Assembly (NCBI RefSeq): GCF_036971445.1
Contig: NC_091480.1
Coordinates: 82,646,001 to 82,710,000 of the forward strand
Reading direction: 5' to 3'
Length of the DNA: 64,000 nt
From: Narcine bancroftii
Lineage: Eukaryota
The translations under genes were made by a program, and so were the position numbers. Shown here piece after piece: positions 1,076-60,608 of this stretch (the stretch's first letter is position 1; each line of letters starts with the position of its first letter). The notes under the pieces are model-generated. The model did not search any database, had not been told where the DNA came from, and worked only from the letters and a program-made list of their open reading frames with translations.

Positions 1076-1643
1076 ATTCATACCTTAGCGAAGGGCTCAG
1101 GCCCGAAACGTTGATTGTCTATCGACGATGCGTGAGTTTCTCCAGCACCTCTGCATCCCGCTGCAGTCACAGCGCCGGCAGCCTGTTCTATTCTACTCCG
1201 GAGAGCCTGTTTTCGTGCTCTGAAACTCGTTTGACACCAAGATGTTCGCAACTTCTACAAAAGATCATCTGAACCATTGAGACCATTTATTCTGACATGA
1301 CTAGCGACGGCTCGTTTCTGGCGACCCGTGTCAACCAGATAGCAGGGTAAATGACCGCAGAGAGGAATGAAGCTCCGACGCTGGCGATGTCATGAGAAGG
1401 GAATATTCCAAATTCCAGGAGCTACCACGTGTACATGTCAGCAATCCAGTAAATTCCTGGAGAATTACTACTCGACCCGCAGTCATTTATTGAAGATTTA
1501 ACCATAATCTTGGAGATGGGGTTTGAAAAGTACCTTCAGGTAAAACACCAGCTATTGATTTGTGACGTCGAGTTCAATGCAAGCAAAATTATTTTTGGCC
1601 ATCGATCCTGTTTGATGTCACTGATGCAAAATAGTTTTCAAAC

Positions 1644-1798
1644 CTTCCTGAAAATTCATCGATGAGTCATTCATGTCACTCATTCTTATTTAAAGCAACG
1701 CTGAGATTCCGCTGTTATTTTCTGCTCCCGCGTCCGGAGCCCAGCAATGTTCAGCAGATTCTGGAAGCGCCTGGGTCTCTGCCCCCCGGGATATATAA
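1644..1798 (+). promoter_or_regulatory. hsp30 copy 1 promoter: heat-shock elements, AP-1 site, TATA box
   Basis: cTTCc-tGAAa-aTTCa (1644-1658) is a perfect 3-unit HSE. TGAGTCA at 1663-1669. aGCAg-aTTCt-gGAAg at 1753-1767. TATATAA at 1792-1798, about 100 bp before the ATG. Confidence 0.85.
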
Positions 1799-1892
1799 GG
1801 TGTGCGTCCCGCGGGCTGCGGCAGCTCAGCCACTGAGATCTGCCCGTTCACAAGCAGCCGCTTTCAGAGCAGCGACAGGAGACGCGGAGACG

Positions 1893-2546
1893 ATGCTGAG
1901 CTGCCGGACCTGGTCCCCTTGCCGTCTGTGCCCGCAGCCTGTGCACACCCTGTGGCCCGTTCCACTCGCCGCCTTTGAGCCGCTCGAATGCACCGCGTGG
2001 AAACGGGCGGAGGCCACGAGAAAAGTCACGGGCTTCGTGGAGCGAATTTTTGAGGAGCTGGTGAAAGAATTCAGGGGCGAAGGAGCGAGGGAGCAGAGGC
2101 AGCGAGCGGCTGCCGCTGGAGAAGGCGACAGCGGGCAAGTGGGCGAGGATGGAGATGGCTTTTCCCTGTGGCTGGATGTGCTGCGATTCTCCCCGGAAGA
2201 ACTGAAGGTAAAAGTGCTTGGAAGAAAAGTGCTGGTGACCGGGAGCCGCGAGAAGAAGAGCGACGATGGCAGCGGCTCTTCCAGCTACAAATATGAAGAG
2301 TTGCGGAGGGAATTCCAGCTGCCGGACGGCGTCGATGCTCAAGCTGTGAACTGCTGCTTGTCCCAGGACGGTCGGTTACAGGTTCGAGCCCCCCGCCTGG
2401 CGCTGCCGGCTGTGGATGAGCGGCTCGTCCCCATCAACGTGGAATCTGGGGAAGCCACCGGTCCCGTCCCCAATCCCGGGGAAGAGGCAAAACAAGAGGA
2501 GAGAGGAGAGGTCGGTGGGAACAAGGAAACACACACGGACACTTAG
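1893..2546 (+). CDS. hsp30: Small heat shock protein, Hsp30/HSPB9-like, intronless, 217 aa (copy 1)
   Basis: Alpha-crystallin domain FSLWLDVLRFSPEELKVKVLGRKVLVTG...LPDGVD...CCLSQDGRLQVRAP, the Hsp30-type DDGSGSSSY loop and a C-terminal VPI (IxI-type) motif. ATG 1893 is the first ATG after the TATA box. Confidence 0.93.
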   Translation: MLSCRTWSPCRLCPQPVHTLWPVPLAAFEPLECTAWKRAEATRKVTGFVERIFEELVKEFRGEGAREQRQRAAAAGEGDSGQVGEDGDGFSLWLDVLRFSPEELKVKVLGRKVLVTGSREKKSDDGSGSSSYKYEELRREFQLPDGVDAQAVNCCLSQDGRLQVRAPRLALPAVDERLVPINVESGEATGPVPNPGEEAKQEERGEVGGNKETHTDT

Positions 2547-2823
2547 ACTCGTTTGCAATGAAACCCTGCAACGTGTCATTGTTCAGATGAAGATGTATTT
2601 TTACCAGTAATATTTTTAAATCAATAATTTTACTTATACCCTGAAAAAAAGGAGCAAGCCCAAAACGTTGGTTATGTATCTTTATCTTTGCTCCATAAAA
2701 TACACTGTTGGACCTTCCGGCGACCTCCAGCAGTGGGTTTTACATGTATCAGTACTTCTTAGTTAACAGTCTATCGTTGCTCACTCTGTTCACGAGGATT
2801 GCTTTACATCATTGTATTGAAAG

Positions 2824-2873
2824 AATAAATATTTTAAATATGAAATATTAGTTTTGGTTCATTATTTAATAAA
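2824..2873 (+). terminator. Polyadenylation signals of hsp30 copy 1
   Basis: AATAAA at 2824-2829 and 2868-2873. The first is conserved in the paralogous flanks (~6152 and 10682). Confidence 0.6.
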
Positions 2874-2989
2874 TGCGCTTTCATGGACTACACACAGACT
2901 TAGCACGTAAAGGTTTCCGTTTTCTTTTCTTTTCTCATGCACAATTAAGTTATTAAGAGCTTCCATGGCAGATGATTGGAGACATCCTC

Positions 2990-3860
2990 CTACATAAAAA
3001 TCGTGGCTTCCCATCGACCACCATCTACTCAGCTCTCACCCGTAGATCCTCCATCAGCTACACATCTGCCCTGACCCTCACCGCCCCCACGCCCAGAGAG
3101 GACAGGTTTCTCACCTCTCACCGCACCAGCCTCCTCATCCCTACACATCCTCCTCCACTATTCCCCCTACCTCTTAAAGTGATCCCACCACCAGACACAT
3201 ATTCTCATAGCCGCCCCCTTCTCAGGGACCACTCCTCCTTGACTCGTTCCCCTGAGGCTGCAGGAGAGCCTCACCTTGCCCCAACACCTCCTCCCACACC
3301 ACCAGTCGGGGCTCCAAACATTCAAGTGAAGCAACACAACACTTGTGAATTTGCAGGTGTCATCTATTGTATCCTGTGCTCCCTACCTCAGATAGACTGA
3401 ACTCAGATGGGAGATCGCTTGGTTACCTGGGCTCCCTCCACTGCAGTGGAGTTCCTCTCACAGTGGGCACTCCTTTCAATTCCCCGGCCCATTCCCTTAC
3501 TGCTATGCCTGTCCACGGTCTCATGCACTCCCAGACTTGAGACCACATTGAATGATCTTGTCTGGGCATCCTCCAACCGGATGGCATTAACATCAACTTC
3601 TCCGGTTTCCGTTACAACCCCCCACCACCTCGTCCCCCGGCTCCTTTCCCCCAGACCTGTCTCTCTCCCCTTTTTCTTTCCTCTCTGTCTTCTTTCACAA
3701 AGACAAAATCAATTCTCACCTTTCTTCTTATCAGTCGGGACTCTTTAGTCTGACGTCTTCCTGATTCTTTGCTTATACCATAAGAAGGGCTGAGGTCCGA
3801 ATCAGTGGTAGTATATCTTTCCCGTCTATGGAGGCTGTGTTTCTGTGTGTTTTTACTCAT
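2990..3860 (+). mobile_element. Penelope-like element 3' fragment
   Basis: RGFPSTTI...QVKQHNTCEFAGVIYCILC matches the GIY-YIG region of the Penelope copy at 61.4-63.4 kb. Ends in the terminal-repeat motif gaagggctgaggtccgaa. Confidence 0.75.
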
Positions 3861-4782
3861 TGAAAGCCCCTTTGGTGCCGAATTGAGGATTGGCACCAAT
3901 TCTGACCGCGAAACGGTGCGTTCCTTCTTTCCAAATCACAGGGTAGTCTCAAACAAATGACGGAATACTTCCACATAACGGAGATTTTTGTACACCGTCA
4001 TGTTCCTTGGCGCTGCCAACATGCCATCTGCGACCTGCGAGACCATCATTGGGTATCCCTCTGTGTGCCTCACCCATGGCTGTCAGACAGTTCTGTTACA
4101 GACTCAATATAAACAGCTTAAGCGACACTGCCAGAAATGGTCCGCATCTCACTGGAGTCAAGGCAAAACAAAGGACAGTTGTATTAAACTCAAAATTTCT
4201 GCTGGAAGTCCTTTTGTCTTTGCTCACACGTGTTGATATTAAACTGTTAAGCCCAAAGGAACAACCCTCTTAAATTCCCAGAGCTGCACCATCGCTCCTC
4301 ACTGTCACCCGCAGGAACCACGAGCGGGCAGAGTCCAGAGTTGCTGTTTATATTCCTTGAACGGAGTTCGATATAATTGCTTAATTGTGCATGAGAAAAG
4401 AAAAGAAAACGGAAACCTTTACGTGCTAAGTCTGTGTGTAGTCCATGAAAGCGCATTTATTAAATAATGAACCAAAACTAATATTTCATATTTAAAATAT
4501 TTATTCTTTCAATACAATGATGTAAAACAATCCTCGTGAACAGAGTGAGCAACGATAGACTGTTAACTAAGAAGTACTGATACATGTAAAACCCACTGCT
4601 GGAGGTCGCCGGAAGGTCCAACAGTGTATTTTATGGAGCAAAGATAAAGATACATAACCAACGTTTTGGGCTTGCTCCTTTTTTTCAGGGTATAAGTAAA
4701 ATTATTGATTTAAAAATATTACTGGTAAAAATACATCTTCATCTGAACAATGACACGTTGCAGGGTTTCATTGCAAACGAGT

Positions 4783-5436
4783 CTAAGTGTCCGTGTGCGT
4801 TTCCTTGTTCCCACCGACCTCTCCTCTCTCCTCTTGTTTTGCCTCTTCCCCGGGATTGGGGACGGGACCGGTGGCTTCCCCAGATTCCACGTTGATGGGG
4901 ACGAGCCGCTCATCCACAGCCGGCAGCGCCAGGCGGGGGGCTCGAACCTGTAACCGACCGTCCTGGGACAAGCAGCAGTTCACAGCTTGAGCATCGACGC
5001 CGTCCGGCAGCTGGAATTCCCTCCGCAACTCTTCATATTTGTAGCTGGAAGAGCCGCTGCCATCGTCGCTCTTCTTCTCGCGGCTCCCGGTCACCAGCAC
5101 TTTTCTTCCAAGCACTTTTACCTTCAGTTCTTCCGGGGAGAATCGCAGCACATCCAGCCACAGGGAAAAGCCATCTCCATCCTCGCCCACTTGCCCGCTG
5201 TCGCCTTCTCCAGCGGCAGCCGCTCGCTGCCTCTGCTCCCTCGCTCCTTCGCCCCTGAATTCTTTCACCAGCTCCTCAAAAATTCGCTCCACGAAGCCCG
5301 TGACTTTTCTCGTGGCCTCCGCCCGTTTCCACGCGGTGCATTCGAGCGGCTCAAAGGCGGCGAGTGGAACGGGCCACAGGGTGTGCACAGGCTGCGGGCA
5401 CAGACGGCAAGGGGACCAGGTCCGGCAGCTCAGCAT
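4783..5436 (-). CDS. hsp30: Hsp30/HSPB9-like small heat shock protein, 217 aa (copy 2)
   Basis: Protein identical to copy 1. One synonymous difference (ACG vs ACA, Thr). Confidence 0.93.
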   Translation of the reverse strand: MLSCRTWSPCRLCPQPVHTLWPVPLAAFEPLECTAWKRAEATRKVTGFVERIFEELVKEFRGEGAREQRQRAAAAGEGDSGQVGEDGDGFSLWLDVLRFSPEELKVKVLGRKVLVTGSREKKSDDGSGSSSYKYEELRREFQLPDGVDAQAVNCCLSQDGRLQVRAPRLALPAVDERLVPINVESGEATGPVPNPGEEAKQEERGEVGGNKETHTDT

Positions 5437-5530
5437 CGTCTCCGCGTCTCCTGTCGCTGCTCTGAAAGCGGCTGCTTGTGAACGGGCAGATCTCAGTGGC
5501 TGAGCTGCCGCAGCCCGCGGGACGCACACC

Positions 5531-5685
5531 TTATATATCCCGGGGGGCAGAGACCCAGGCGCTTCCAGAATCTGCTGAACATTGCTGGGCTCCGGACGCG
5601 GGAGCAGAAAATAACAGCGGAATCTCAGCGTTGCTTTAAATAAGAATGAGTGACATGAATGACTCATCGATGAATTTTCAGGAAG
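5531..5685 (-). promoter_or_regulatory. hsp30 copy 2 promoter (TATA, HSEs, AP-1)
   Basis: Mirror of 1644-1798: TATA 5531-5537, AP-1 5660-5666, HSE 5671-5685. Confidence 0.85.
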
Positions 5686-5871
5686 GTTTGAAAACTATTT
5701 TGCATCAGTGACATCAAACAGGATCGATGGCCAAAAATAATTTTGCTTGCATTGAACTCGACGTCACAAATCAATAGCTGGTGTTTTACCTGAAGGTACT
5801 TTTCAAACCCCATCTCCAAGATTATGGTTAAATCTTCAATAAATGACTGCGGGTCGAGTAGTAATTCTCCA

Positions 5872-6290
5872 GGAACAAGGAAACAGACTCATTTTCAATG
5901 AAACTTCCACATGTCAACGTCTAGATGAAGATGTAGTTTTAGAGTAACACATAAATACCTTTAAAATATCAATGAACTTGCTCATAATTTGATGAAGGGC
6001 TCTAGGCCGGAACGTTGGTTATGTATCTTTATCTCTGACCCGCTGAGATTTCCCACCTTTGTATCACTACTTGTTTGTTTGACCCTCAGTAGTTACTTAC
6101 CCTGCCACTACACACGTTCTCGTGGATTATTTTACGCTATTGTACTGAAAGAATAAATATTTTGATTTGTAAACTATTTGTTTTGTTTCATTTCCTTTAT
6201 TAAATGCATATTCATGAACTAAACATAGTCATAACTCGTTAAGGTATTTTCTTTTTTCAAACGCAATTCAGCTGCCTAGGTCTTCCATGC
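5872..6290 (+). pseudogene. 3' relic of a fourth, diverged hsp30 copy (last codons and 3' UTR)
   Basis: ggaacaaggaaac-agactcattttcaatgaaac...agatgaagatgtagttttagagt aligns with the stop region and 3' UTR of copy 3. Homology continues through the AATAAA region. Confidence 0.85.
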
Positions 6291-6700
6291 CACATCATCA
6301 GATGTCAACCTTTAATCAACGTGCCTTCCCCTCTACTGCCATCAACACGTCCCTCACCCGTAGATCCTCCATCAGCCGCACATCTGCCCGGTCCCTCACC
6401 ACCCCCATGTGCAACAAGGACAGGATTTCCCCCTGTCCGCACCGACTGACCCACCAGCCTCCGTCTCCTGCATATCCTCTTGCACCATTTCCACTGCATG
6501 ATCCCACCGCCAGACACAGCGTCCCCTCTCCTCCCCTCTTCATTTCCCCCCAGGGACCGCTCCCTCCTTGACTCCCATGTCTACTCCTCCCTTCGCAACT
6601 ATCCCTGTGACCACAGGGTGTGATCCACTTGCACCCACACTTCCTCTCTCACCTGTGAATCTGCAGGGGTCTTCTGCTGCATCCAGTGCTCCAGTTGTGG
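6290..6700 (+). mobile_element. Penelope-like fragment (paralog of 10810-11745)
   Basis: ORF MPHHQMSTFNQRAFPS.. is shared with 10804..11064. Confidence 0.75.
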
Positions 6701-8770: not shown

Positions 8771-9079
8771 TGGTGTAGATTGAGTAAACGCGAGCAGGAG
8801 CAGTTAACGAGCTGCCAGCTGAATTGGTAAATTCAGGCTCAGTCTTGACATTTACGAAACATTTGGACAGGTGCACTGACGGCAGGACCATGGTGCAGGT
8901 CAGGGGGGGTTAAGGAGGAATATAGTTTGGGATAGACTAGAAGGGCCGAAGGCAGTGTTTCTGTGCTGTAATATTCGATGCTTTTAACATCTGCCGTCAT
9001 GTCCCAACTTTATACTTTGGAACCAACTTTGCTTGAATCAACGCTGCATCCCTGCGCCTCCCCGTGTCGTCATGGGCTC

Positions 9080-9236
9080 AGAACAGGCTGGAAGTCTCTG
9101 GGTGATGTCGGTGAGTCACCGGGTGAAACCTCCCAGTTTAGAGGCGGAGTCAGTCTGTTCACCTCCCGCGTCCGGAGCCCAGCAATGTTCAGCAGATTCT
9201 GGAAGCGCCTGGGTCTCTGCCCCCCGGGATATATAA
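9080..9236 (+). promoter_or_regulatory. hsp30 copy 3 promoter
   Basis: Degenerate HSE aGAAc-aggct-gGAAg-tCTCt (9080-9099), TGAGTCA 9112-9118, proximal HSE 9191-9205, TATATAA 9230-9236. Confidence 0.75.
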
Positions 9237-9330
9237 GGTGTGCGTCCCGCGGGCTGCGGCAGCTCAGCCACTGAGATCTGCCCGTTCACAAGCAGCCGCT
9301 TTCAGAGCAGCGACAGGAGACGCGGAGACG

Positions 9331-9984
9331 ATGCTGAGCTGCCGGACCTGGTCCCCTTGCCGTCTGTGCCCGCAGCCTGTGCACACCCTGTGGCCCGTTC
9401 CACTCGCCGCCTTTGAGCCGCTCGAATGCACCGCGTGGAAACGGGCGGAGGCCACGAGAAAAGTCACGGGCTTCGTGGAGCGAATTTTTGAGGAGCTGGT
9501 GAAAGAATTCAGGGGCGAAGGAGCGAGGGAGCAGAGGCAGCGAGCGGCTGCCGCTGGAGAAGGCGACAGCGGGCAAGTGGGCGAGGATGGAGATGGCTTT
9601 TCCCTGTGGCTGGATGTGCTGCGATTCTCCCCGGAAGAACTGAAGGTAAAAGTGCTTGGAAGAAAAGTGCTGGTGACCGGGAGCCGCGAGAAGAAGAGCG
9701 ACGATGGCAGCGGCTCTTCCAGCTACAAATATGAAGAGTTGCGGAGGGAATTCCAGCTGCCGGACGGCGTCGATGCTCAAGCTGTGAACTGCTGCTTGTC
9801 CCAGGACGGTCGGTTACAGGTTCGAGCCCCCCGCCTGGCGCTGCCGGCTGTGGATGAGCGGCTCGTCCCCATCAACGTGGAATCTGGGGAAGCCACCGGT
9901 CCCGTCCCCAATCCCGGGGAAGAGGCAAAACAAGAGGAGAGAGGAGAGGTCGGTGGGAACAAGGAAACGCACACGGACACTTAG
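9331..9984 (+). CDS. hsp30: Hsp30/HSPB9-like small heat shock protein, 217 aa (copy 3)
   Basis: Protein identical to copies 1 and 2, offset +7438 from copy 1. Confidence 0.93.
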   Translation: MLSCRTWSPCRLCPQPVHTLWPVPLAAFEPLECTAWKRAEATRKVTGFVERIFEELVKEFRGEGAREQRQRAAAAGEGDSGQVGEDGDGFSLWLDVLRFSPEELKVKVLGRKVLVTGSREKKSDDGSGSSSYKYEELRREFQLPDGVDAQAVNCCLSQDGRLQVRAPRLALPAVDERLVPINVESGEATGPVPNPGEEAKQEERGEVGGNKETHTDT

Positions 9985-10071
9985 ACTCGTTTGCAATGAA
10001 ACCCTGCAACGTGTCATTGTTCAGATGAAGATGTATTTTTAGAGTCATGTAGAAAAACCTTTAAAATATCA

Positions 10072-10492
10072 ATTATAGATGTTAAGTAATTTAAAATATG
10101 TTAATTGGTAGAATTTGGTACAAACTTTGTTACTTCCCTGCCTCACTCAATTTATTTCATTTTACTTTATTAGATGTTATTTGTGTGCTTTTTAAAAAAA
10201 CCCCTATATACATATTTTTTGAATTGTGTTATATATTACACAGTAGTGTTTAATTGTTCCATATACTTCATACTTAAAAGATATAATTGTAGTTGTAAAT
10301 ATTAGAATAAATAGGTCACAATTTATTAATGAGGTAATATCCAGTATTGCTAAAAAGTCTATTTTTTCATTTCTTTTCCATCTTTCTTTGGGGCTTTTCT
10401 GCATTGGAGGGGGAGAAAAATTATAAAACAGATATTGATTTTAATATAAAATTTTCTAGTTTTGTTACATGCGCCAATAAAATATGAAAATA
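10072..10492 (+). mobile_element. AT-rich insertion (probable L1-like 3' end) in the copy 3 3' UTR
   Basis: Absent from the paralogous flank at ~5970. Ends in AATAAA/A-rich sequence and is flanked by aaaatatca at 10063-10071 and 10493-10501. Confidence 0.5.
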
Positions 10493-36358: not shown

Positions 36359-36633
36359 AGCCAAGAGTGAACTAATCAGGTATGCATTACCAATCGTATT
36401 TCTCTCTCATCGTGTTTTACAATGACCAATCCAAATCTAAGTTCCTGATAGCCAAGAGTGAACTAACCAGGTACGCATTACCAATCGTATTTCTCTCTCA
36501 TCGTGTTTTACAATGACCAATCCAAATCTAAGTTCCTGATAGCCAAGAGTAAACTAACCAGGTACGCATTACCAATCGTATTTCTCTCTCATCGTGTTTT
36601 ACAATGACCAATCCAAATCTAAGTTCCTGATAG
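36359..36633. repeat. Tandem repeat, 3 x 91 bp
   Basis: Units start at 36359, 36450 and 36541. Three variable positions in total. Confidence 0.97.
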
Positions 36634-48060: not shown

Positions 48061-50420
48061 TGCTGCCACTGACCATTGAATGTCAGCACCCCCTATGCCT
48101 TCCTCTCACTGATGCAATGTTTGGAAAGGAAATGTTAGTGGCATTGACATATTGTAGGGGCATATATTGAATTGATTGGTTCAATAGCTCTAGACAATGG
48201 CATGGCTCGTTCCTCAGATCATACTAGTCAACAAGTGTGGAAGGTCAGTAATGCCCAGTTGGACAATGGTCAAGGGAACAAAACTGAGTGCAATGCATTA
48301 TGTATATTTCTGCTTTTTATTTAAGTATCCTTTAGACTTAGTTCTTACTTGCCCCGTTACCCCTTGGTCATTCTGCCATCACACTCTTAAATGAAACTCA
48401 CCCTGAGAAAAGATGATACCTTTTGTCCCGTTTTCTATACCTTCTTCTGGGCTTTTCTCAATACCCTGCATGATTTGATGTGCTGCTCCATCTGTTGTTT
48501 TATTTATTAACTTCTTTATTATTATTATTTCAGTACCTGCACTGTATCTCAGTGCATGAGACAATTAATTTCTGACAGATCTTCCCTTTCCTCTTTTTCT
48601 GAATCCCAAAACTTATTTTTCTCTAACTTTTCTCAGTTGCTATGAAAATTCATTGACATCCTGCATTAATTCCCTTTCTGGCCTGCTAATTATATCAAGC
48701 ATTTTGTTTTTTTGTTATTTACTGTTCTTGGGAGCTTGTTATGCGCAAGTTCATATACTCTTCACCTTGTATTACAACGTGCATCATACATTAAAGACAC
48801 CTTTGGTTGGAAAGTATTTTGGGATACATGAGAATCGGAAAGGTATTTTGTTTTGCCTGAATGAGTTCATTGTTCAGAGTTTCTGCTTCAAACTGAAACA
48901 TTATGTGCAGGATCAGTCATGCCACATATTTTATGTGACAGGGTGTCATACAGCACAGATGCAGACTCGACAGCCAACCATCTTTACTAATCCCATTGAC
49001 CAGCAGTTGGCCTGAGGTGCAGTGGATGCTGAACCTGAAGTAATTAACCTGTGACAATCAGCTTTTATTCAGAAACAAAAGAAAACAAAATTCACATAAA
49101 ATGAAAATATAATTGAAGTACTACTCATTCTATGTAGCTGTTTTGAGAAAATAGTTATCTTTTTAAATTTTCTAGAGCCAACAGGAAAGATACAGATGAA
49201 TGCTGACTGTCAATTTCTGTCAGGAGTATTGAAGGTAGTAGCTAATGGGACAAATGTGAAACCAGCTTTCAATCCATAGCGACGTGAGAATCATAAAGGT
49301 GTTTGTGGTAAACCACTGTTATACTGTGATTGGCTACTGCCAGCTGGTCACAGCTTCTGAGACCGATCCTACCCATTACCCCTGTGCATACTCCCCACTC
49401 TTCCTGCCATGATCAGTCGATGAGGTTGGTTGCTGCTCCAGTCTATAGTCAATAAAAGCTGGTCAGTTTCACAACCTCAGTCTTTTGTGGTAATTGATGG
49501 TGCATCAATTTTATTGATCATATTTTTCAAAGAAAATAGAAAAATACCTGAAACCCAAGAGACTCGTCATAGACCCTCGATCATCTGATGCCCTGAACAC
49601 GTTCGAAATCTGACTATGTTGCTTTGAGAACTTCCTGATGGCAACCGTGAATGCTGTTAACAGGAATGAGGACAGACTGAAACTCCTTTTCTCACAAGTC
49701 AGACCCTTGATCAATCATATGTGAAGGCCATGGGTACATTGAAGGTCCAGTATTGCAGAAGAATGAATGAGGTCTACACAAGACATATCCAGGCCACCAG
49801 AAAGTAGTGATCCGGTGAGTCGAGTGCCAAGTACCTATGGGGCCTTTGGGCCCTCTACAGAGGGTGCGACTACAAAGCCGTGATGGCTACCCAGAACACA
49901 GAGGACCTCATCGGGACCCCTATGTGGCCGGCATCTGGACCGGATACATCATACAGCAATTCCTGGAGCACAAGGTTCTTTACCTGCAAAGGGCGGTTGA
50001 ATTAACAGAGACACTGGAGGTGGCCCTCCAAAATTTGGACAACTACTTGGCCTCCAAATGCACCTCAATTTTGGGATGGGGTTCCATCTCGTGCCATGAT
50101 CAAATGGTTGTAGGCATCATCGCACCCTCTAACAACCTGACCTTGTGCTACTTCTGTGGGCAGGGCAAGGATCCAAGGAAATGCTGCCCTGCCAAGAAGG
50201 GGACATTATGCAAAGATTTGCTAGTCTAACCTGCCCGTGAAACCTAGCAGCGCCGCATGCTGACAGCCGTCAACCCAGACAGCACAATTAGCACCATCCC
50301 CTCTGTGGACTAGGGCCACGTGCGAGCCGTGGGGGTCGCCATTTTGGCCCACGTGGCTGGGGCCATCTTCTTGGGCCGGCAGCATAGAGGGGGATCAATG
50401 AAAGCAGCCATCTTGGGAAC

Positions 50421-50853
50421 TGTTAGGTCTGCTTTGTTCATGAATGAGTGAGACAAACACCAGGCTGAGTCGAAATCAGGGTTCTTTGTTCTTTATTACC
50501 GGATTGTAACACTTGCGACTAAACATGTTAGTCGGAGAATGCATTCTGCCGTTATCAGCAAAATGGTGATTTTTTATACCCTTGGATATGTGCTTAGAAC
50601 ATCATCATATCATTACTTGTCCAATGACTAAAACTGTTGCTATCCTTTCCCTGCTAGCTTCCTGCCTCTCAATCCATCAATGTCTCTCTTATCTTGTAAG
50701 TACAAGGATGCATTCACATCTTGTTACTGCCCCGTACATTCCCATCTCATGATGTTTTACCTAACAGGAGTACAAGGACACCTCCCCTTCTTGTTACAGC
50801 CTTGTACAGGGTAACTCCCTACACATTCCCATCTCATGATGTTTTACCTTACA
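50421..50853 (-). mobile_element. Solo LTR nested between gag and protease
   Basis: TGTTAGG...CCTTACA termini, 4-bp TSD GAAC, minus-strand TATAAAA (~50572-50578) and AATAAA (50492-50497), internal tandem repeats. Confidence 0.85.
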
Positions 50854-53839
50854 GAACCCATGCTCTCATCAGACTCGGACAGTGAGACTTTATTGGCCTC
50901 CATCACCCTGAACCAAGAGGGACCACACAAACTCGTCAGGTCTATGTTGGATGTCCAGGTAAACAGGTGTGTAACAAGCTCTTAGTTTGATAGCAGGAGC
51001 ATAGAAAGCTTTATTCACTGTCTATCCCTCGAAATGTGGCCAGTCAGCCATATGATAAGACATGTCCAAATCCCATATGGCAGAAGTCCACGGGCCCTGT
51101 ACGGTGACTTTTACCATTGGAGGCACAGTTTACAAACACTTAAGGCTCCTTGTCACGCTGCAGCCCTGTGCCCCCTTGCTACGGGGGCTAGATTTCCAGT
51201 GCCAACTTAAGAATGTTACATTGGAATTTGATGGGCCCCATCAGCCCCTCACCGTTTACAATGAACAGTTCCTAGATGGCCCTCTACCCATGACCTGTGG
51301 GCTCTTGACCCTCAAAGTAGCCCCTCCACTGTTGTTCGGAGATCTCACCCCTGCCTGCAAGCTGGTGGCCACCAGGAGCAGGCAATACTGTGCCGCAGAC
51401 AGAGCATTCATCAAGTCAGAGGTGCAGCATTTGTTGGGCGAAGACATCATCGAGGCCAGGAGAACCCAGGTGGTCTAAGTAAAGAACACGATGGTCATAG
51501 ACTATAGCCAGACCATAATTGGTACACGCAGCTTGATGCGTACCCCTCCCCCGCATATCTAATACGGTTAACCAGATTGCACAATATCGAGTATTCTCCA
51601 TGATCGATCTCGTCAGCCTATCACCAGCTCCCGATTCGCCTGGAGGACTGCCAGTACACTGCATTTGAGGCAGATGGCCATTTTACCACTTCCTCCAGGT
51701 TCCCTTTGGCGTCACAAATGGGGTTTCCGTTTTCTCGCTGGAGATGGACCGCATGGCCACCTTATCCTATCTTGACAATGTGACCATCTGCGGCCATGAC
51801 CTGCAGGACCATGATGCCAACCTTCGAAAATTCTTCTGGGCCGTGAAGCTCCTGAACCTTATTTATAAGAAGGATAAGTGTGCGTTCCGCACAACCTGAC
51901 TAGCCATTCTCGGCTGTGTGGTCAAAAACGGTGTCATTGGCTCCGATCCTGACCGCATGCACCCTCTATTGAAGCTACCCCTTTCCCACACCCTCAGAGC
52001 TTTGAAGGGATGCCAAGGTTGCTTGTACTATGCTCAGTGGGACCCCAACTTGTGGACAAGGTTCGACCATTGGTCAAAGCCACCTCCTGCCCCCACTGGC
52101 AGAGGCCTGAGTAGCCTTCGACCATATCAAGGATGACATCACTAAAACAGCAATGCATGCAATAGATGAGTTCACACCTTTCCAGGTGGAGAGTGATGCA
52201 TCTGACTTCTCCTTGATTGCCACACTTGCCTTCTTCTCACACACCCTCCATGGCCTTGAAATCCACCATTCCTCAGTTGAAAAGGAGGTCCAGGCCATCG
52301 TGAAGGCAATATGCCACTGGAGGCACTACTTCGCTGGCAAACACTTCACCCTCCTCATGGACCAATGGGTGGTTTCCTTCATGTTCAACAACAAGCAGAG
52401 GGCAAAATCAAAAGTGATAAAATTCTCAGATGGAGAATTGAACTGTCCACCTATAATTATGATATCCTATACAGGCTTGGCGATCTTAACAAGCCCCCGG
52501 ATGCCCTCTTCCGCAGGACTTGTGCCAGTATCCAAATGGTCAGACTGCAGACCCTCCACAACAGCCTCTGCCACCCCAGAGTGACTAGGTTCTTCCATTT
52601 AATTAAACCATGGAATGTACTATACTTCTTTGAGTAAGTCAGAACAATGACCAAAAACTGCCTGGTCTGAGCCGAGTGCAAACTGCACTTCTAACGTCTG
52701 GACAAGGCACACCTGATCAAATCTACTCGCCCCTTCGAGCACCTGAGCATCGACTTCAAGGGGCTTCTTCCTTCCTCGAACTGGAACATATACTTCCTTA
52801 CCATTGTCCATGAGTACTCTCACTTCCCTTTCGCCATCCCCTGCTCAGACATGACCACGGCTACTGTCATCAAGGCCCTCAGTGATATCTTCACGCTCTT
52901 TAGGTACCCCAGCTTCATCCACAGCGTCCGGAGGACCTCATTTATAAGCGACAAGCTGCGGCAGTACCTGCCAGCCAGGGCCATTGCCATGAGCAGGAAC
53001 ACCAGCTGCCATCCCAGAGGGAATGGGCAGGTGGAGAATGCCAAGGGCCAGAAAACCATCCTCCTGGAACTGAGGTCACGGGGCCTCCCCGTCTTCCACT
53101 GGCAAGAGGTGCTTCCAGCTGTATTCCACTCCGCATGGTCGCTCTTATGTACAGCCACTAACAATATGCCTCATGAATGTATATTTGCTTCCCTAGGATG
53201 TCTATGTCAGGTACTATGCTGCCTGTCTGGATGTCCTCCCCGGGACTGGTCCTGATTTTGAAGCACACCAGCCAATCTAAGACTGCCCACTAGTGGAAAG
53301 GGTCTACCTCCTCCACACAAATCTCCAGTATGCCTACGTAATCTTCCCCGATGGGCGCAAGGACACCGTCTCGATCTGGAATTTGGCACCATCGGGCGTC
53401 CCTCCAACCGCGATCAACCACCAACAGACAGTCACCCCCCCCCCCACCCCTGCCAGCTTGGGGTCCCCGAACCTGCTGCTGACCACACTTTACTCTTGGC
53501 AGCTGTTGTACCCATGATGCACCAGCACCACACTCCCTCCTCTCTTCATTTGTCCCTTCCCCCTGGCAAACTGTAACCAGTGATAACAGACCAGCCGCAC
53601 AAACTGCCCATGGCGGCATCTCAACCATGTCATTCGCTGCAGCAGAGGAGATCCCCTGACAGACTTAACCTGTAAAATATGTATATGTGTATATATTTGC
53701 TTCATTTTTCTCTCACCCTGCAGGACTCTTCTTAAAAAAGGAGGGGTGAATGTAGTAAATCTCTGTTATACTATGATTGGCTACTGCCAGCTGGACACAC
53801 CTCCTGAGATTGATCCTACCCATTACCCCTTTGCCATTC

Positions 53840-54203
53840 TGTGGTGGTACACCAATGGCCACTGTAAGGGGCAACCTCTGTATCTGTAGGGGGACAAGAC
53901 AACACCTGGCCGGCTGTCAATCAGCCAACCTGAATGGACCCAGTTGGGTCTCAATCATCCTCCACTGTAGGGGGCAACCTCTGTACCTGCAGAAGAGCAG
54001 GGGGACAAGACAACACCTGGACGGCTGTCAATCAGCCAACCTGAATGGACCCGGTTGGGTGTCAATCATCCTCCAGGATATAAGCCTTCTAAGTACTCTC
54101 AGAGTTCATAGCAGCACACTCTCACAGCTGGCTCTGTGGAGTTTTACGTCGAATAAAGCTTGTTGTACAGTCTTTAGTTTTGTGTGTTTGCTTCTGACCA
54201 ACA
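53840..54203 (+). mobile_element. Solo LTR nested in the Gypsy 3' LTR
   Basis: TGT...ACA termini, perfect 5-bp TSD CATTC, ~100-bp internal tandem duplication, GATATAAG (~54077) and AATAAA (54152). Confidence 0.9.
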
Positions 54204-55234
54204 CATTCTTCCTGCCATAATCAGTTGATGAGGCTGGTTGCTGCTCCAGTCTATAGTCAATAAAAGCTGATCAGTTTCACAACCTCAGTCTTTTGTGGTA
54301 GTTGATGGTGTATCATTGTTATTGTCTGCACTACTCTTGCTGTAGTAAAAGACAGAGGATTTTGAGTGTCCGGATTCCCAATAAAGTTGCTTGAACATAC
54401 AGGAATGTTCTTGCCAGTTCTGCTGTGCTCCCATTGTAAATTCTATAGAGCCATTTGGCCATACCCAAAATGTTAAAGTTGAAACTGTATTTAATCACCT
54501 GCTGCTATATTTGCGATAAGAGTACAAAAGCTCAAATCAGAGAGATTCTCTTGAGATTCTTCAGGAAGAAATTCTTCCAGAATGCTTGCATATACTGCTG
54601 AATGAAAAAAAAGCCCATGCTGCGACTGCTCGTCTCCATGTGGCTCACAACAGGGACAAGGTCCCATGACTGGCCTCCTACTTCCTCATTCCTCTTTCAA
54701 CTGATTTCTCTGTGTCACTTTGGAAACATTCCTGTCTGCTTTCCTTTATCATAGTTAAAATGAAACATAGTCAAAAAGAGTCTGTAAACCATCCAACACA
54801 AATGATGTCCAATCAAGTAACAGGAAATTTGTTGCAAATTTTGCAGTAAATTATTAGCTGACAATGGTTTTAAATTTTGAGACACAGCACCTTTCTGTTT
54901 GAAGCCTTGCTGCTTGGGAACCTGTTGATGGAATATTGGCCAGGATCAGTGACGAAGGAAACAAGTATTACTCAAAGTTTTATTCTTATCATATCTGTAC
55001 GTTCTGCTATGATTAGTCCATCTTGAACATTGGAGTCATAATATAATATTATTTACATTCTCCACACTTTGTATTTTTTAAATTCTTGTTGTGCATGTTC
55101 CATATTAATGATAACAGTTCCCAATGTGGCAGTTGGATCATGTAGTTGGAAATTGAAAGCAAACATTTGAACGTCCTCCTGTCATAGGATGTGAAGACCT
55201 GGTACATTTTAAAATTTATACATACATCACTGTA

Positions 55235-58912: not shown

Positions 58913-59364
58913 CTCTTTGGCTTGGCTTCGCGGACGAAGATTTATGGAGGGGGTAAAAAGTCCACGTCAGCTGCAGGCTCGTTTGTGGCTGACCAGTCCG
59001 ATGCGGGACAGGCAGACGCGGTTGCAGCGGCTGCAGGGGAAAATGGGTGGGTTGGGGTTGGGTGTTGGGTTTTTCCTCCTTTGCCTTTTGTCAGTGAGGT
59101 GGGCTCTGCGGTCTTCTTCAAAGGAGGTTGCTGCCCGCCAAACTGTGAGGCGCCAAGATGCACGGTTTGAGGCGAGATCAGCCCACTGGCGGTGGTCAAT
59201 GGGGCAGGCACCCAGAGATTTCTTTAGGCAGTCCTTGTACCTCTTCTTTGGTGCACCTCTGTCACGGTGGCCAGTGGAGAGCTCGCCATATAACACGATC
59301 TTGGGAAGGCGATGGTCCTCCATTCTGGAGACGTGACCCATCCAGCTGGATCTTCAGCAGCGTG
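58913..59364 (-). mobile_element. Young 5'-truncated RTE LINE
   Basis: Open frame GHVSRMEDHRLPKIVLYGEL..RDRGAPKKRYKD..W..C..C.R.C.SRIGLVSH. TSD gtcaggcagttggagg(a/c)aacat. Confidence 0.9.
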
Positions 59365-60186: not shown

Positions 60187-60399
60187 TTGAATACTACTGG
60201 TCTCTGAGGATATTGGACAAAATTCTGGATCACCTCAGGGTTCATCTGGTGTGTGAAGTCCTGATGCCTGGGACCTACAGATAGGAGACTGCAGTCGGTG
60301 GCCAGAAGGATGTCAGGAAATGTTTCCAGGACCAAAGATTCACTTTTCAAACCCATTCTGATTGCCAACGTTATTTGATCTCAGCCTATGGTGCCTTTG

Positions 60400-60608
60400 A
60401 AGAAGACTGCAGAGCCCACTTCACTGACAAAAGGCAAAGGAGGAAAAACCCAACACCCAACCCCAACCAACCAATTTTCCCCTGCAACCGCTGCAACCGT
60501 GTCTGCCTGTCCCGCATTGGACTTGTCAGCCACAAATGAGCCTGCAGCTGACGTGGACATTTACCCCCTCCTTAAATCTTCGTCCGCGAAGCCAAGCCAA
60601 AGAAGAAG
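60400..60608 (+). mobile_element. RTE LINE 3' end
   Basis: Near-identical to the 58.9-kb copy. 12-bp TSD atggtgcctttg (60388-60399, 60609-60620). Confidence 0.88.

Follow-up and report, generated by a model that had tools for sequence, protein, structure and literature searches.

We describe a cluster of hsp30 heat-shock genes in a window of 64,000 nucleotides (nt) from Narcine bancroftii (NCBI RefSeq assembly GCF_036971445.1, contig NC_091480.1, positions 82,646,001 to 82,710,000 of the forward strand); positions below are those of this window. An intronless hsp30/HSPB9-type gene is present there as two complete copies that face each other tail to tail in a palindrome, and a third copy, whose core is the same, stands in tandem farther along. 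With moderate confidence, we hold that the inverted copy is a duplicate within this three-gene cluster, that duplication and gene conversion have served Hsp30 dosage, and that an edited hairpin RNA is an occasional by-product.

The two arms of the palindrome, of 1496 bp each, are reverse complements of one another at 1494 of 1496 positions (>99% identity). One of the two mismatches, at 2531 (A) against 4798, is synonymous in a Thr codon, and the other, at 2802 (C) against 4527, lies in the 3' untranslated region (UTR). The arm ends are abrupt: the match holds to the last base, the nearest mismatch is 148 bp inside and no decayed homology continues beyond. At its outer junction the right arm has a 4-nt microhomology with the remnant of a further hsp30 gene. 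The left part of the spacer is a fragment of an interspersed repeat, which is found also 3' of copy 3 and in the remnant (73-75% alike), and the right part is unique sequence. Since the repeat piece is common to these three places, the left part of the spacer appears to be the natural downstream flank of gene 1, and the new joints would therefore be those at 4380 and 5875. The original prediction had proposed near-perfect inverted arms with two mismatches around a spacer of 1430 bp, and this is what was found, with exactly two mismatches; the heat-shock elements (HSEs), TATA box, coding sequence (CDS) and poly(A) signals that it placed in each arm were all located in both (Table 1). Its description of two genes was correct as well, and missed the third, non-inverted copy and the remnant of a fourth gene.

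For judging whether the structure is genuine, we used X1, a DNA run of short-read unitigs, which may come from the assembled individual and whose unitigs are independent of the assembly path. Its unitigs break at 1454/1483, 1725/1754, 2603, 2920/2949 and 4409, namely at arm and core edges, and their depths are 2.9 in the flank, 6.3 in arm-only sequence, 9.1 in the core, 5.7 again in arm-only sequence, and 3.0 and 3.0 in the spacer, corresponding in order along the locus to one, two, three, two, one and one copies. The spacer unitig extends 30 bases into the right arm, and X1 carries both letters at 2802. In another sample, X6, which is one of four probable RNA runs (X5 to X8; their RNA status is guessed, and they are available as contigs only), a contig stops at 2801, directly before the variant at 2802, as is expected with both arm types present. 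A fold-back read or a false duplication in the assembly would be favored by the near-identity of the arms, by a gap of 200 N that lies ~3.8 kb left of the left arm and by the possible origin of X1 from the assembled individual. The right outer junction, moreover, was compared with the four probable RNA runs only and is bridged by none of them; it is implied by the X1 branch at 1454-1483. Against such an artefact, the unitig breaks at the palindrome edges and the depth ratio of about 1:2:3:2:1 argue, together with the spacer unitig, the two letters at 2802 and the X6 contig end, and the junction microhomology with a decayed paralog looks biological. An artefact is thus scarcely credible, and the worry that the inverted copy might be false is answered in favor of the structure. 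As for the orientation of the spacer, both inner junctions exist either way, and 31-mers do not phase across arms of 1.5 kb.

The evidence for gene conversion comes from copy 3, which lies outside the palindrome. Its core is identical to the right arm over 879/879 bp, including 225 non-coding bases, and is one base off the left arm. The 3' flank of copy 3 matches the arm flank at only ~73% and that of the remnant at about 90%, and the 5' flank of copy 3 has no homology to the arms (395/500 shuffles score as high), so that the perfect HSE of the arms is absent from copy 3 and a homologous tract edge exists at the 3' side only. The identical core beside a diverged homologous 3' flank points to a conversion tract; since homogenisation reaches a copy outside any palindrome, it would cover the cluster, and the palindrome is not required for it. 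The fourth paralog is represented by a remnant without promoter and gene body, which is 89-91% alike to the copy 3 flank and 73-75% to the arm flank; against the core, it is alike at 59/70 positions with a 14-nt gap (about 16% diverged). The view that palindrome arms are kept identical by arm-to-arm conversion is therefore upheld in part: conversion at the locus is supported by copy 3, and upkeep between the arms is indistinguishable from a young duplication.

One identical protein of the HSP20 family is encoded by all three genes. The Pfam HSP20 domain (PF00011) covers residues 85-181 with 62.4 bits against a cut-off of 20.8 (E 4.8e-17), and homologues were found in 60 other proteins at E<=0.001, namely elasmobranch hsp30C / hspb11-like proteins, of which the best is from Pristis (69% identity over 98%). 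A quick tree was built from 81 of 93 proteins, leaving out 11 Logan rows and the record P0062. The window protein is placed in it among the rays and skates (batoid rows; support 88), and the elasmobranch hsp30 copies cluster per lineage: Pristis 4/4 (support 100), skates in 7 rows (99), stingrays and Mobula in 12 rows (96) and lamniforms in 26 rows (99). This grouping by lineage suggests that turnover and homogenisation are the rule in the elasmobranch hsp30 family.

The order of events that we infer starts from a tandem array of old hsp30 paralogs. A template-switch copy of gene 1 would have replaced, in inverted orientation, the promoter and body of the adjacent gene, of which a 3' stump was left, and gene conversion would have given copy 3 a core identical to that of the arm genes. 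Conversion likely keeps the hsp30 copies alike, and their likely use is plain Hsp30 dosage. If an RNA chanced to include both arms, it would form a stem of up to 1.5 kb for ADAR to edit, likely as a minor by-product. Several points weigh against this history. A single complex event of recent date could account for the right arm as well as the copy-3 core, with no need for repeated conversion. The 59/70 likeness of the remnant to the core lies between the two expectations for the direction of conversion, and birth-and-death would likewise agree with the lineage grouping of the tree. Organism B (X9, depth about 3) differs, among the listed contigs, only at the two arm-variant sites, and is too close and its depth too shallow for dating. 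In X6, the depth is 217 for the contig with the arm-type UTR and 2589 for that of the copy-3 type; genes cannot be ranked by contig depth, and the difference goes the way expected if the arm genes were damped.

The age of the inversion is the point at which a different history enters, that of an old palindrome kept identical by arm-to-arm gene conversion, like the nematode hsp-16 locus and Y-chromosome palindromes. A young inversion agrees with the abrupt and undecayed arm ends, and an old one is compatible with the decayed remnant and the nematode precedent. Conversion does operate at the locus, as copy 3 indicates, and the divergence of the remnant from the core would date the inversion as old if it was the inversion that killed that gene. 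In the nematode case as outlined in the available part of PMC1803023, a palindrome that seemed young turned out to be old. The remnant may, however, have diverged before it was overwritten, and arms that are perfect to their last base, with no decayed homology outside, speak against great age. We regard an old palindrome as rather unlikely, and prefer a recent inverted duplication within a cluster that undergoes conversion.

Table 1. Features of the hsp30 cluster, in window positions.
Feature	Position	Strand	Remarks
Left arm	1454..2949	+	Distal promoter, hsp30/HSPB9-type gene 1, 3' UTR; unitig breaks and 2x depth in X1
Right arm	4380..5875	-	Gene 2, inverted copy; 2 mismatches to left arm
Spacer	2950..4379	.	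1430 bp; single-copy depth in X1
Perfect three-unit HSE	1644..1658, mirror 5671-5685	+	Arms only, none upstream of copy 3; HSE scan
Imperfect proximal HSE, one mismatch	1753..1767, mirror 5562-5576, copy 3 9191-9205	+	Common to all three copies
TATA box	1792..1799, mirror 5530-5537, copy 3 9230-9237	+	Read from sequence
CDS, gene 1	1893..2546	+	217 amino acids (aa), intact, intronless
CDS, gene 2	4783..5436	-	Same protein as gene 1; tblastn
Main poly(A) signal AATAAA of arm genes	2824..2829, mirror 4500-4505	+	
Second AATAAA of arm genes	2868	+	
Antisense AATAAA near outer arm end	5838..5843, mirror 1486-1491 on -	+	Antisense to gene 2
Copy 3, putatively homogenised core	9163..10041	+	Proximal HSE to 57 nt past stop; CDS 9331-9984
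Copy 3 poly(A) signal	10306..10311	+	X6 contig ends ~10330
Remnant of fourth paralog	about 5872..6700	+	Last codons, 3' UTR, downstream repeat piece
Probably edited stretch in X5	5775..5833	-	= 1496-1554 on +; arm-only, upstream of promoter; 12 changes in 59 nt

The probable RNA runs give information on the use of the genes. X6 is RNA-like in that a contig ends 19 nt past the AATAAA of copy 3 and the depth climbs ~30 nt downstream of the TATA box. Contigs of X7 and X8 extend past the core into a 3' UTR of arm type, those of X5 into one of copy-3 type, and X6 has both types. Since the arm-type 3' UTR is seen in these runs, the arm genes appear to be expressed, not silenced, and the occurrence of different 3' UTRs in different runs hints at copy-specific use of the genes. 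The distal promoters of the arm genes (1454-1724) and of copy 3 (8800-9162) are unrelated, and the former alone have the perfect HSE. Both X5 and X6 have contigs in the spacer, and a contig of X6 (2852-3121) crosses from arm to spacer at 2949; because the upstream flank is covered too, read-through is not isolated by the spacer contigs. X5 has no cover at 1484-1507 and 2788-2905, and 5901-5943 is uncovered in all four runs. These holes would agree with scattered editing within the arms and with termination of an RNA near 5860, and they were not counted as evidence.

A hint of RNA editing was obtained from one contig of X5. Three of its 12 changes are listed, four lie in a loose end of 12 letters and five are unread; in gene sense, 21 adenosines are present over the stretch. 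All of the readable changes (7/7) are A to G in gene sense. Among the 12 adenosines in the readable zones, 7/8 of those after U or A are changed against 0/4 of those after C or G (Fisher p=0.010), and this 5' preference is that described for human ADAR1 and ADAR2 in the accessible sections of PMC3113232. No change was found in four unique flank or spacer contigs of the same run (584, 683, 521 and 290 nt) or in the X7 contig over the same upstream bases; X6 and X8 lack contigs in this stretch. The arm-restricted A to G cluster with its U/A preference is thus seen in 1/4 of the probable RNA runs. Exons of an ADAR-family deaminase are present in the genome. A further genomic copy as the source of the changes was rejected: a search with 1454-1724 gave 2 matches, both being the arms; the 200-N gap could hide one, though the threefold core depth in X1 argues against an extra copy. 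With slightly better than moderate confidence, we take the changes of this one contig to be real RNA editing. The stretch is in gene sense and lies about 300 nt upstream of the promoter, and the edited RNA would therefore start outside the gene and not be plain read-through from the hsp30 promoters. It fits an RNA crossing the whole palindrome, either on the + strand from the side of a KAT2A-like gene at the left or on the - strand from the side of a RAB5C-like gene at the right; an extension of the X7 contig by 30 bases into the left flank fits the former. The antisense AATAAA near the outer arm end could terminate an RNA having crossed the whole palindrome. For the proposal that a read-through transcript from either gene folds into a hairpin, edited double-stranded RNA (dsRNA) accordingly has one hint in its favor, and the strand and position do not point to the hsp30 promoters alone.

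A functional role of such an RNA has to be weighed against a by-product. In a hairpin switch, an RNA containing both arms would pair with itself as a stem of >1 kb, which is edited or diced and damps the hsp30 output after stress. More specifically, a transcript from upstream of gene 1 that ends at the 5838 AATAAA would form a stem of ~1.4 kb, be hyper-edited by ADAR, and, edited or diced, limit all three hsp30 copies via the shared core, and conversion would also keep the silencing target matched. Because the 879-bp core is common to the three genes, small RNAs would indeed hit copy 3 as well. The X5 contig with its ADAR-like neighbours, the unchanged unique contigs beside it, the spacer contigs with the bridge at 2949 and the deaminase exons all favor a switch, and in C. 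elegans both read-through and dsRNA increase upon heat shock, according to the available portion of PMC6453478. The X5 contig may, however, be one molecule, from one run of guessed RNA status and without DNA of the same individual; 5/12 of its changes are unread, its strand is gene sense upstream of the promoter and no product of read-through from an hsp30 promoter, and X7 is unedited over the same stretch. Cleavage at the normal poly(A) signal leaves only ~105 in-register bp in cis, so that a long stem requires uncleaved RNA, and two ATTAAA signals are present in the spacer on the + strand. Editing, furthermore, demonstrates dsRNA and not regulation. The switch is quite improbable in our judgement, in the general form and in the specific form to the same degree, and we keep to Hsp30 dosage with hairpin RNA as a by-product.

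The promoters of the arm genes contain elements expected of genes inducible by HSF1. An HSE is defined by at least three alternating nGAAn units, as stated in the consulted part of PMC9737000; three such units are found near the TATA box in the arms (1644-1658), and copy 3 has the one-mismatch element only. From these HSEs and the family membership, the hsp30 genes here are presumably heat-inducible. A remnant of an hsp30 promoter at the right end of the spacer was considered and rejected (290/500 shuffles were equally good), and in three further flank comparisons 76/500, 173/500 and 213/500 shuffles were as good. A 294-aa form with an in-frame upstream ATG at 1662 (1662-2546 / 4783-5667; record P0062) was also rejected as the likely product because it reads through the HSE and the TATA box. 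N-terminal extensions occur also in Mobula and Cetorhinus records, and the Mobula extension resembles the 294-aa form exactly where TATA box and 5' UTR get translated; the 294-aa form and these extensions are likely annotation overreach. Elsewhere in the genome, a dispersed hsp30 fragment on contig C23 (6701383-6701661) is 82% alike, covers the alpha-crystallin part only and has a 21-bp deletion; having no match to the promoter or the N-terminal half, it is likely a pseudogene. Three loci on contig C15 have weak HSP20-domain matches (E 2.8e-7 to 3.6e-6) in long open frames unlike hsp30, and may be divergent small heat-shock proteins (HSPs) or other domain-bearing genes.

The cluster lies between a KAT2A-like gene (PCAF_N exons, - strand) left of the window and a RAB5C-like gene (Rab5-type exons, - strand) at 20.9-29.5 kb of the window, whose 3' end faces the hsp30 cluster. 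We take the KAT2A-RAB5C interval to mark the HSPB9/hsp30 locus, as for human HSPB9. The 200-N gap is ~2.4-2.6 kb left of the window on contig C24, 1.4 kb upstream of the KAT2A-like exon 2. Exon 1 of KAT2A was not found in the 124 kb searched, and is therefore probably inside this gap; exon 1 of KAT2B was found on C1, ~1.1 kb before KAT2B exon 2. Other elements in and near the window are a decayed LTR-retrotransposon-like element at 49396-54324, with 121-nt direct repeats 4.8 kb apart (93%), broken open reading frames between them and a reverse transcriptase RNase H match; a 91-bp unit in three tandem copies at 36359-36633 (97-98% alike); an inverted pair of repeat fragments at 58914-59124 / 60394-60603, 94% alike over ~210 bp and 1.27 kb apart; and, ~21.7-22.5 kb to the left of the window, a minisatellite that has a period of 15 bp and spans ~820 bp.

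The cluster combines two routes of diversity loss, in which one paralog was apparently overwritten in inverted orientation and the core of another was apparently converted. Should the hint of editing prove true, the locus provides a natural test of vertebrate tolerance for a near-perfect coding hairpin of 1.4 kb from a strongly expressed gene, and also of whether the stress response is limited by it. Searches of open-access literature gave no paper that treats hsp30 clusters of elasmobranchs or the editing of hsp gene pairs in inverted arrangement. Like the elasmobranch hsp30C / hspb11-like clusters and the vertebrate HSPB9/hsp30 locus, the present cluster is multi-copy and grouped by lineage; several relatives have many diverged paralogs, whereas the three copies in this genome share one protein sequence. 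Among inverted heat-shock gene pairs, those of Drosophila hsp70 stand head to head. The pairs Hsp70Aa/Ab and Ba/Bb and other dipteran inverted hsp70 pairs are homogenised by conversion, as reported in the available parts of PMC3924832 and PMC3071340, and they resemble this locus in being inverted pairs whose copies are alike. They differ in encoding Hsp70 and not small HSPs, and conversion is established there, in those same parts, by cross-species and polymorphism data. Heat-shock downstream-of-gene transcripts, in the accessible text of PMC6453478, are similar in that dsRNA can result when read-through enters inverted or antisense sequence; unlike them, the edited stretch here is in gene sense and upstream of the promoter.

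The closest known system is hsp-16 of C. elegans (T27E4.3/T27E4.9), a convergent small-HSP pair in an inverted repeat of 3.8 kb with 100% arm identity, as given in the consulted sections of PMC1803023 and PMC3966223, both of which are our source for Russnak and Candido (1985) on this locus. In both systems, complete small-HSP genes with their promoters stand tail to tail in near-identical arms around a unique spacer, and the same question arises of whether the arms are young or converted. The hsp-16 palindrome has two head-to-head genes per arm, a spacer of ~415 bp and a known age, having been shown to be old through C. remanei in the available part of PMC1803023. The present locus has one gene per arm, a spacer of 1430 bp and a third tandem copy with the same core. 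The palindrome layout is thus already known from C. elegans hsp-16, and what is described here is a vertebrate case of inverted, homogenised heat-shock gene pairs.

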